A stretch of DNA of 64,000 nt, taken from NCBI RefSeq assembly GCF_003334305.1, contig NZ_QOWS01000006.1; one strand, written 5' to 3'. A model generated the notes under the pieces. That model was not told where the DNA came from and ran no database searches. It saw only the letters and a program-made list of their open reading frames with translations. Numbering within the stretch: position 1 is the stretch's first letter; the number at the start of each line of letters is the position of its first letter. This document shows, piece after piece, positions 4,882 through 14,770 of the stretch. The translations under genes were made by a program, and so were the position numbers. This DNA is from Escherichia coli. Lineage in GTDB: Bacteria > Pseudomonadota > Gammaproteobacteria > Enterobacterales > Enterobacteriaceae.

Positions 4882-6399
<1,518 letters not shown>

Positions 6400-6535
6400 T
6401 TAATTCCACTGTGAAAACGAATATTTATTTTGCGTTCCCGTTTGTTTTATTTTTGTTAACATTTAATATAATTATTATTAACCTCGTGGACGCGTTAATG
6501 GCTAACTCATAATGGGTATTCAATAAGCTGCATTC

Positions 6536-6551
6536 TGTGATTGTTATCACA
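6536..6551. promoter_or_regulatory. CRP (cAMP receptor protein) site, perfect consensus palindrome TGTGATTGTTATCACA
   Basis: Exact TGTGA-N6-TCACA seen in sequence within the cai/fix intergenic region. Confidence 0.7.
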
Positions 6552-6592
6552 TTTTTGTTTCGGGTGAATAGAGGGCGCTTTTCTCGTTAATT

Positions 6593-6607
6593 TTGATTAT
6601 TAATCAG
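6593..6607. promoter_or_regulatory. possible FNR/CRP-family half-site pair TTGATTATTAATCAG (imperfect)
   Basis: Resembles TTGAT-N4-ATCAA with a shifted or imperfect right half; cai/fix are anaerobically induced. Confidence 0.3.
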
Positions 6608-6647
6608 TTTGTTATGTTGTGTTGTGAGTAAAAAAATAGCATCTGAC

Positions 6648-6778
6648 TTTCAATATTGGTGATCCATAAAGCAATATTGAAAATTTCTTTTTGCTACGCC
6701 ATGTTTTCAATATTGGTGAGGAACTTAACAATATTGAAAGTTGGATTTATCTGCGTGTGACATTTTCAATATTGGTGA
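6648..6778. promoter_or_regulatory. CaiF-type activator sites: three copies of TTTCAATATTGGTGA, two of them paired with CAATATTGAAA after a 13-bp spacer
   Basis: Copies at 6648-6662, 6705-6719 and 6764-6778; partners at 6672-6682 and 6729-6739; the core CAATATTG is itself a palindrome; lies in the divergent caiT-fixA control region. Confidence 0.7.
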
Positions 6779-6869
6779 TTAAAGTTTTATTTCCAAATTA
6801 AAGGGCGTGATATCTGTAATTAACACCACCGATATGAACGACGTTTCCTTCATGATTTCTGGAGATGCA

Positions 6870-7640
6870 ATGAAGATTATTACTTGCTATAAGTGCGTGC
6901 CTGATGAACAGGATATTGCGGTCAATAATGCTGATGGTTCATTAGACTTCAGCAAAGCCGATGCCAAAATAAGCCAATACGATCTGAACGCTATTGAAGC
7001 GGCTTGCCAGCTAAAGCAACAGGCAGCAGAGGCGCAGGTGACGGCCTTAAGTGTGGGCGGTAAAGCCCTGACCAACGCCAAAGGGCGTAAAGATGTGCTA
7101 TCGCGCGGCCCGGATGAACTGATTGTGGTGATTGATGACCAGTTCGAGCAGGCACTGCCGCAACAAACGGCGAGCGCACTGGCTGCAGCCGCCCAGAAAG
7201 CAGGCTTTGATTTGATCCTCTGTGGCGATGGTTCTTCCGACCTTTATGCCCAGCAGGTTGGTCTGCTGGTGGGTGAAATCCTCAATATTCCGGCAGTTAA
7301 CGGCGTCAGCAAAATTATCTCCCTGACGGCAGATACCCTCACCGTTGAGCGCGAACTGGAAGATGAAACCGAAACCTTAAGCATTCCGCTGCCTGCGGTT
7401 GTTGCTGTTTCCACTGATATCAACTCCCCACAAATTCCTTCGATGAAAGCCATTCTCGGCGCGGCGAAAAAGCCAGTCCAGGTATGGTCGGCGGCGGATA
7501 TCGGTTTTAACGCCGTGGACGCCTGGTCTGAACAACAGGTTGCTGCGCCGAAACAGCGCGAACGTCAGCGCATCGTGATTGAAGGCGACGGCGAAGAACA
7601 GATCGCCGCATTTGCTGAAAATCTTCGCAAAGTCATTTAA
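6870..7640 (+). CDS. fixA: electron-transfer flavoprotein beta-subunit homologue (carnitine reduction)
   Basis: Track ORF 6807-7640 is 5'-extended; the ATG at 6870 ([14 protein letters not shown]) is preceded by GGAGAT and matches the FixA N-terminus. Confidence 0.9.
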
Positions 7641-11713: not shown

Positions 11714-12236
11714 ATGATTCTTATAATTTATGCGCATCCGTATCCGCATCATTCCCATGCGAATAAACGGATGCTTGAACAGGCAAGGACGCTGGAAGGC
11801 GTCGAAATTCGCTCTCTTTATCAACTCTATCCTGACTTCAATATCGATATTGCCGCCGAGCAGGAGGCGCTGTCTCGCGCCGATCTGATCGTCTGGCAGC
11901 ACCCGATGCAGTGGTACAGCATTCCACCGCTCCTCAAACTTTGGATCGATAAAGTTTTCTCGCACGGCTGGGCTTACGGTCACGGCGGCACGGCGCTGCA
12001 TGGCAAACATTTGCTGTGGGCGGTGACGACCGGCGGCGGGGAAAGCCATTTTGAAATTGGTGCGCATCCGGGCTTTGATGTGCTGTCGCAGCCGCTACAG
12101 GCGACGGCAATCTACTGCGGGCTGAACTGGCTGCCACCGTTTGCCATGCACTGCACCTTTATTTGTGACGACGAAACCCTCGAAGGGCAGGCGCGTCACT
12201 ATAAGCAACGTCTGCTGGAATGGCAGGAGGCCCATC

Positions 12237-12244
<8 letters not shown>
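11714..12244 (+). CDS. kefF: flavodoxin-like quinone oxidoreductase, regulatory subunit of the KefC K+ efflux system
   Basis: 176-aa [26 protein letters not shown]...; its TAG stop overlaps the kefC start. Confidence 0.9.

Positions 12245-14770
<2,526 letters not shown>

Follow-up and report, generated by a model that had tools for sequence, protein, structure and literature searches.

The CRP site at the class II position of the Escherichia coli cai promoter: sequence, geometry and conservation

The caiT-fixA intergenic region

The window analysed here is a stretch of 64,000 nucleotides (64 kb) of Escherichia coli DNA that contains the start of two carnitine-related operons. On the minus strand, a 504-codon open reading frame at 4882-6396 corresponds to caiT, the first gene of caiTABCDE, which encodes an L-carnitine/gamma-butyrobetaine antiporter. 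On the plus strand fixA, the first gene of fixABCX, occupies 6870-7640. Both assignments follow from the reading frames and from the annotation in E. coli genomes. The spacer between the two genes measures 473 bp and has a G+C content of 32%, compared to 53% for the whole window. A segment of 511 bp around the palindrome discussed below is present in 5,395 of the 5,426 complete E. coli genomes, where the flanking genes are annotated as caiT and fixA; it is identical (100%) to the corresponding part of several E. coli chromosomes and 98% identical to that of K-12 MG1655. According to reviews, the cai-fix spacer is controlled by cAMP-CRP, FNR and CaiF, and induction of the cai genes requires CRP (PMC2131755).

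Other types of elements were also considered for this region. A 41-codon open reading frame with a GTG start, located at 6425-6550 on the minus strand, overlaps the palindrome, but it was dismissed in view of its location in the leader and promoter and of a conservation pattern that resembles a binding site and not a series of codons. A search of positions 6300-6950 against Rfam returned a single sub-threshold match, to a eukaryotic snoRNA (E = 0.67), which does not indicate an RNA element in this segment.

Sequence and strength of the CRP box

The 16-mer TGTGATTGTTATCACA is found at exactly 6536-6551, where the original prediction had placed a perfect CRP palindrome. All ten consensus positions of TGTGA-N6-TCACA are matched, the extended form TGTGAT-N4-ATCACA also fits, and self-complementarity extends to 12 of the 16 positions. 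When both strands are scanned, this is the sole zero-mismatch core in the 64-kb window; if one mismatch is tolerated the number of matches rises to three, with 1.8 expected. After dinucleotide-preserving shuffling the window holds a mean of 0.06 perfect cores, and at least one such core occurs in 6 of 100 shuffles. Since the count of perfect cores taken alone thus reaches only p ~ 0.06 for the window, the case for the site rests on its position, its conservation and the published binding data.

The strength of the box was evaluated with a symmetrised CRP matrix derived from 106 sites occupied in vivo, taken from the ChIP-seq table of enterotoxigenic E. coli (ETEC) H10407 with the caiT site excluded (PMC4287617). 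In this weight-matrix scan, which had been proposed as a check on the palindrome, the box obtained 17.75 bits, the best match in the window and the ninth highest score among the 107 ChIP sites. A perfect TGTGA-N6-TCACA core is present in 8 of these 107 sites (7.5%). Such cores are uncommon, not rare, and the original statement that a perfect consensus is rare among natural CRP sites was too strong. The other ChIP-seq-occupied sites with a perfect core are those of mtlA, galP, maa, ycfQ/bhsA, ygcW/yqcE, yibI and fdhD/fdoG, which belong to operons different from cai, and in the excerpted RegulonDB rows for CRP (PMC3105977, Table S4) a perfect core also appears at azuC, as TGTGATTTGTATCACA.

The second-best matrix match in the window, AGTGACGTAAATCACA at 14105-14120, scores 16.6 bits and has one core mismatch. 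It begins 6 nt past the stop codon of a kefC-like open reading frame (12141-14099) and lies upstream of a folA-like one. Neither the ETEC ChIP table nor the SELEX article in its main text includes this sequence.

Geometry of the cai promoter

The centre of the box lies at 6543.5. A -10 hexamer, CATTAT, is located on the minus strand at 6509-6514, 21 nt downstream of the CRP 16-mer, and was recognized by this distance and by its conservation across species. A cai start 7 nt past the hexamer would fall at 6502 on the minus strand, 41.5 bp from the centre of the box, which agrees with the distance of -41.5 given in RegulonDB. The -35 region reads CAGAAT, matches the consensus at only two of six positions and is overlapped by the CRP box. 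Poor agreement of this kind is typical of class II promoters, where CRP touches RNA polymerase directly and substitutes for the -35 element (Busby and Ebright 1999). With the start taken to be 7 nt past the hexamer, the box at 6536-6551 is centred near -41.5 over the -35 region, as class II sites are. A consensus scan for sigma-70 promoters in the sequence found the fix promoter and did not list the cai promoter, as is to be expected of a class II promoter that lacks a -35 element. Between the start and the caiT gene there is a 5' untranslated leader of about 105 nt (6397-6501, minus strand), which is 82% invariant across Escherichia. EcoCyc, as cited in PMC3680233, has ArcA sites here, at +28 and +50.

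The arrangement is the same as in class II promoters such as galP1, which likewise combines CRP at -41.5 and a weak or absent -35 element with a -10 hexamer 21 nt after the 16-mer. The two differ in that the core of the cai site is perfect, whereas the gal site appears as TTTATTCCATGTCACA in the galETKM -41.5 row of the RegulonDB table in PMC3105977. They also differ in that cai additionally needs a pathway-specific activator, CaiF, which is bound more than 100 bp further upstream.

In view of the above, the sequence at 6536-6551 is almost certainly a high-affinity cAMP-CRP site, namely CRP site 1 of the class II promoter of E. coli caiTABCDE. The sequence, the position, the geometry relative to the -10 hexamer and the conservation on which this reading is based were computed here, and no result obtained here speaks against it; the value of -41.5 and the evidence that CRP binds in vivo and in vitro are from the literature. 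The proposed mechanism is that a CRP dimer would occupy the box, with its centre 41.5 bp upstream of the predicted cai start, and, if the general class II mechanism applies, would contact RNA polymerase directly and thereby replace the -35 element. Full activation of cai would also need CaiF, the carnitine-specific activator, acting from two upstream boxes of the type TTTCAATATTG-N13-CAATATTGAAA.

The site in databases and earlier work

Publications have described the cai CRP site since the 1990s. Buchet and co-workers are said to have obtained DNase I footprints of CRP at the -41.5 box in 1998. These authors reportedly named the element 'perfect CRP motif 1' (Buchet et al. 1998, J Bacteriol 180:2599).

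The RegulonDB rows excerpted in Table S4 of PMC3105977 list CRP as an activator of caiTABCDE at -41.5 with the sequence TGTGATACCAATCACA, which is the K-12 allele of the box read on the cai strand. In Table S3 of the same paper the cai CRP site is given the K-12 position 42078.5; this maps to 6543.5 in the window, which is the centre of the box. The caiT site, as TGTGATTGGTATCACA, is the first entry in the CRP ChIP-seq table of ETEC H10407 (PMC4287617), and caiT and fixA are among the targets of CRP found by genomic SELEX (PMC3105977). The RegulonDB activator row, the ChIP-seq entry and the SELEX result bear out the expectation that the palindrome is a CRP site of the cai-fix control region, in keeping with the cAMP-CRP dependence of carnitine metabolism. 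The proposed comparison with start sites led to the same outcome, since the catalogued cai start sets the palindrome at the canonical class II position. Locus, position and half-sites are those of CRP site 1 of caiTp in RegulonDB and EcoCyc; the only difference is one base in the spacer, the window having TGTGATTGTTATCACA where K-12 and ETEC H10407 have TGTGATTGGTATCACA.

The site is therefore already known: it is catalogued in RegulonDB and EcoCyc, has been recovered by ChIP-seq and SELEX, and offers nothing new for E. coli. Its practical value is that of a positive control, in which a real and functional operator was correctly identified from sequence alone. Small additions concern the class II geometry over about 20 genera, the narrow range of the perfect core and the occurrence of FNR-type boxes in some lineages, as described below.

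The fix side and the CaiF boxes

A promoter scan places the fix promoter on the plus strand at 6757-6785, with a -35 hexamer GTGACA (6757-6762), a 17-nt spacer and a -10 hexamer TAAAGT (6780-6785), from which a start near 6792 can be derived. Upstream of it are two weak CRP sites. One, GGTGAGGAACTTAACA at 6715-6730 (8.0 bits), is centred at 6722.5, or -69.5 of fix; the other, GGTGATCCATAAAGCA at 6658-6673 (5.0 bits), is centred at 6665.5, or -126.5 of fix. Within the spacer GGTGAGGAACTTAACA is the second-best match to the CRP matrix, and GGTGATCCATAAAGCA stands further down the list. The RegulonDB rows excerpted in Table S4 of PMC3105977 assign to fixABCX a site GGTGAGGAACTTAACA at -69.5, identical to the sequence found here, and a site GGTGATCCATAAAACA at -126.5, from which GGTGATCCATAAAGCA deviates by one base. 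A fix start at 6792 reproduces both catalogued distances.

The weak CRP sites are embedded in the binding sites of CaiF. Two boxes with the structure TTTCAATATTG-N13-CAATATTGAAA agree with the CaiF consensus quoted in PMC12083890. The cai-proximal box is a perfect inverted repeat at 6648-6682 with its centre at 6665 (-163 of cai, -127 of fix) and encloses GGTGATCCATAAAGCA; the fix-proximal box, recognized as a repeat of the same structure, is at 6705-6739 with its centre at 6722 (-220 of cai, -70 of fix) and encloses GGTGAGGAACTTAACA. A fifth, unpaired CaiF-type half-site, TTTCAATATTGGTGAT, is present on the plus strand at 6764-6779, between the -35 and -10 hexamers of fix, and belongs to a family of direct repeats with three copies. 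In Proteus species there are seven CAATATTG cores rather than five.

The position of the perfect box relative to the two starts bears on the question of which operon it serves. A single CRP site could in principle drive both cai and fix, in the manner of araBAD-araC or gltA-sdhC, and indeed the box is located between both starts and both operons depend on CRP. However, between the centre of the box and the predicted fix start at 6792 there are 248.5 bp, which puts the box at -248.5 of fix, outside the distances of about -41 to -93 at which class I and class II sites act. Separate CRP sites are moreover catalogued for fix, at -69.5 and -126.5. Mutagenesis by Buchet and colleagues in 1998 reportedly showed that the -41.5 box is needed for cai and not for fix, and the cai and fix starts are said to have been mapped in the same work to positions 289 bp apart. 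Furthermore, caiTABCDE-fixABCX is placed among the operon pairs that distinct CRP molecules control (PMC3105977). A shared site is thus very improbable. The palindrome does lie between the divergent promoters, as was originally noted, but service to fix does not follow from this position: the box serves cai only, as a class II site, because of its distance of 248.5 bp to the fix start and because fix has weak CRP sites of its own.

The segment that connects the CRP box to the first CaiF box is a variable linker of 94 bp (6552-6645) and a hot spot of divergence: in Escherichia only 35% of it is invariant, compared to 82-97% of the flanking parts. From the centre of the box to the first CAATATTG core the distance is 108-111 bp in Escherichia, Citrobacter, Salmonella, Pseudocitrobacter and Phytobacter, and 124-125 bp in Proteus, Pluralibacter, Trabulsiella and Entomohabitans. 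The preservation of linker length despite the divergence of its sequence suggests that the spacing between CRP and CaiF may be under constraint.

Conservation of the cai promoter

Within E. coli the spacer of the box (6541-6546) is polymorphic and reads TTGTTA, TTGGTA, TGTTAG or TTGTTG; the nine sampled genomes carry these four alleles between them, and none of the nine departs from the ten-base core. Counting exact 44-mer haplotypes centred on the box by megablast, a procedure that covered 4,702 of the 5,395 genomes and left the remaining haplotypes to sampling, gave 2,537 genomes with TTGTTA, the allele of the window, 1,411 with TTGGTA, the K-12 allele, and 504 with TGTTAG. These three perfect-core haplotypes account together for 4,452 of the 5,426 complete E. 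coli genomes, and the allele of the window is the commonest. Across the genus Escherichia the share of invariant positions is 80% in each half-site and 17% in the spacer. Among the species sampled the perfect core is confined to Escherichia, Citrobacter youngae and Intestinirhabdus alba. The cai promoters of Citrobacter, Salmonella, Proteus and Providencia carry a CRP box with one mismatch.

To cover a wider range of organisms, the region upstream of caiT was compared in 80 loci that encode relatives of CaiT. An alignment of 22 species shows invariance at GTGA and T.AC in the box, at the GA that follows and at the A and T in positions 2 and 6 of the CATTAT hexamer, and the stretch from box to hexamer is free of gaps. 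For 53 of the 54 Enterobacterales loci, the top-scoring CRP-matrix match in the 700 nt upstream of caiT has a hexamer CANNAT, usually CATTAT, CATCAT or CATGAT, at exactly +21. The 53 loci contain 34 distinct box spacers. Thus, the half-sites are kept and the spacer is free to vary in orthologous promoters, and about 20 genera share the class II geometry at cai.

This pattern also bears on the possibility that the palindrome arose by chance in AT-rich intergenic DNA and has no function. The shuffled sequences give this idea some basis, as roughly 0.06 perfect cores expected per 64 kb corresponds to several per genome and 6 of 100 shuffled windows hold one. A chance palindrome would not, however, be expected to keep its half-sites around a free spacer in about 20 genera at a fixed distance of 21 nt from a -10 hexamer, nor to coincide with an in-vivo ChIP-seq peak and a database entry. 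In view of this conservation and of the binding data in the literature, the explanation was rejected, and we give it practically no weight.

The FNR question

The original prediction also mentioned an imperfect FNR-like motif 40 bp from the palindrome. The sequence concerned, TTGATTATTAATCAG, is indeed located at 6593-6607, at a distance of 41 bp, and was compared to the FNR consensus TTGAT-N4-ATCAA. In the required register with a 4-bp spacer it matches at 7 of 10 positions, and 9 of 10 is reached only with a 5-bp spacer. Of its positions 40% are invariant within Escherichia, where only ATCA (6603-6606) is unchanged throughout; the left half is replaced by TTCAT, CTTCA or TTCTT in other Escherichia and is altered even in one lineage of E. 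coli. The FNR ChIP-seq and ChIP-chip peak list, obtained in glucose minimal medium without carnitine, proceeds from caiF (34065) to mraZ (89279) with no peak at cai-fix (PMC3688515). Sequence and position of the motif were thus correct, but its identity as an FNR site did not hold up in view of the score at N4, the poor conservation and the peak list, and TTGATTATTAATCAG is probably not a functional FNR site. In the same study the cai genes are treated as indirect FNR targets that respond via CaiF; caiT and fixA do not appear in its table of hns/stpA mutants.

Two other positions have been attributed to FNR. EcoCyc, as quoted in PMC3680233, lists FNR sites of cai at -90.5 and -41.5. Allowing for one extra base in the window relative to K-12, the -90.5 site would correspond to TTAATTTTGATTAT at 6587-6600, which matches the consensus at 7 of 10 positions and overlaps TTGATTATTAATCAG in a different register. 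The -41.5 site would be the CRP box itself, of which the inner 14-mer GTGATTGTTATCAC agrees at 8 of 10 positions with TTGAT-N4-ATCAA. An FNR box, for example the one at -41.5 of the caiF promoter, shares its architecture and its centre-to-start geometry with class II CRP boxes; what separates the two consensus sequences is one key position per half-site.

Accordingly, the box could be a dual target of CRP and FNR, or be used by FNR under anaerobic conditions, in which case oxygen control would be exerted directly at the box. The 8/10 match of GTGATTGTTATCAC, the quoted EcoCyc entries at -41.5 and -90.5, and the orthologous boxes of other bacteria, which are a perfect FNR box in Budvicia and closer to FNR than to CRP in Hafnia and Edwardsiella, are in agreement with this option. 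On the other hand, the E. coli cai box has the CRP-discriminating G in both half-sites (GTGA, not TTGA), and caiF has an FNR ChIP peak whereas none is listed for cai-fix. Overproduction of CaiF reportedly restored induction in an fnr mutant in the 1998 work of Buchet and colleagues, which means that the fnr requirement was bypassed. Direct use of the box by FNR is for these reasons improbable, and binding by CRP remains the preferred assignment. Direct FNR action at the cai-fix spacer would be putative at most and looks weak; exclusive use of the box by CRP is probable but not certain, because the box matches the FNR consensus at 8 of 10 positions and EcoCyc is reported to list FNR at -41.5.

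CRP-type and FNR-type boxes in other lineages

In several lineages the element at the -41.5 position has a different character. Hafnia, Edwardsiella, Leminorella, Limnobaculum and one Serratia possess a hybrid, TTTGATTAAGATCACG, with an FNR-like left half and a CRP-like right half; the pattern [TC]TTGATT[AT]AGATCAC[GA] has one mismatch to FNR and one to three mismatches to CRP. The cai promoter of Budvicia has a perfect FNR box, TTGATTTCGATCAA; the Budvicia sequence ATTGATTTCGATCAAG contains a perfect TTGAT-N4-ATCAA. The FNR-type and hybrid boxes are those of the Hafniaceae and Budviciaceae loci (L025, L047, L049 and L051-L057 of our set), at approximately 240-310 nt upstream of caiT. Whether CRP-type, hybrid or FNR-type, all these boxes keep a distance of exactly 21 nt to one and the same -10 hexamer.

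As the Enterobacterales evolved, the caiT class II box could conceivably have been converted from one of the two types, CRP or FNR, to the other, but we propose such a conversion only tentatively and consider it rather doubtful. If the bound regulator truly differs, a single place in the promoter would sense cAMP in certain lineages and oxygen in others. Were such a conversion to have occurred, the E. coli box, with its 8/10 match to FNR, might keep some residual FNR responsiveness.

Two further observations concern the limits of this promoter layout. Among the Enterobacterales loci, only that of Yokenella regensburgei (locus L029, 1270-1375) lacks a CRP-like box upstream of caiT; it has a short spacer, and the place of the CRP box of other species is taken by a CaiF-type half-site, CAATATTGAA. 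Outside the Enterobacterales, Shewanella species (loci L071, L076-L078, L082 and L083) have the sequence CGTGATAACGATCACT upstream of the caiT homologue, followed in four loci by CATGAT at +21, and the class II layout of the cai promoter may extend to this genus.
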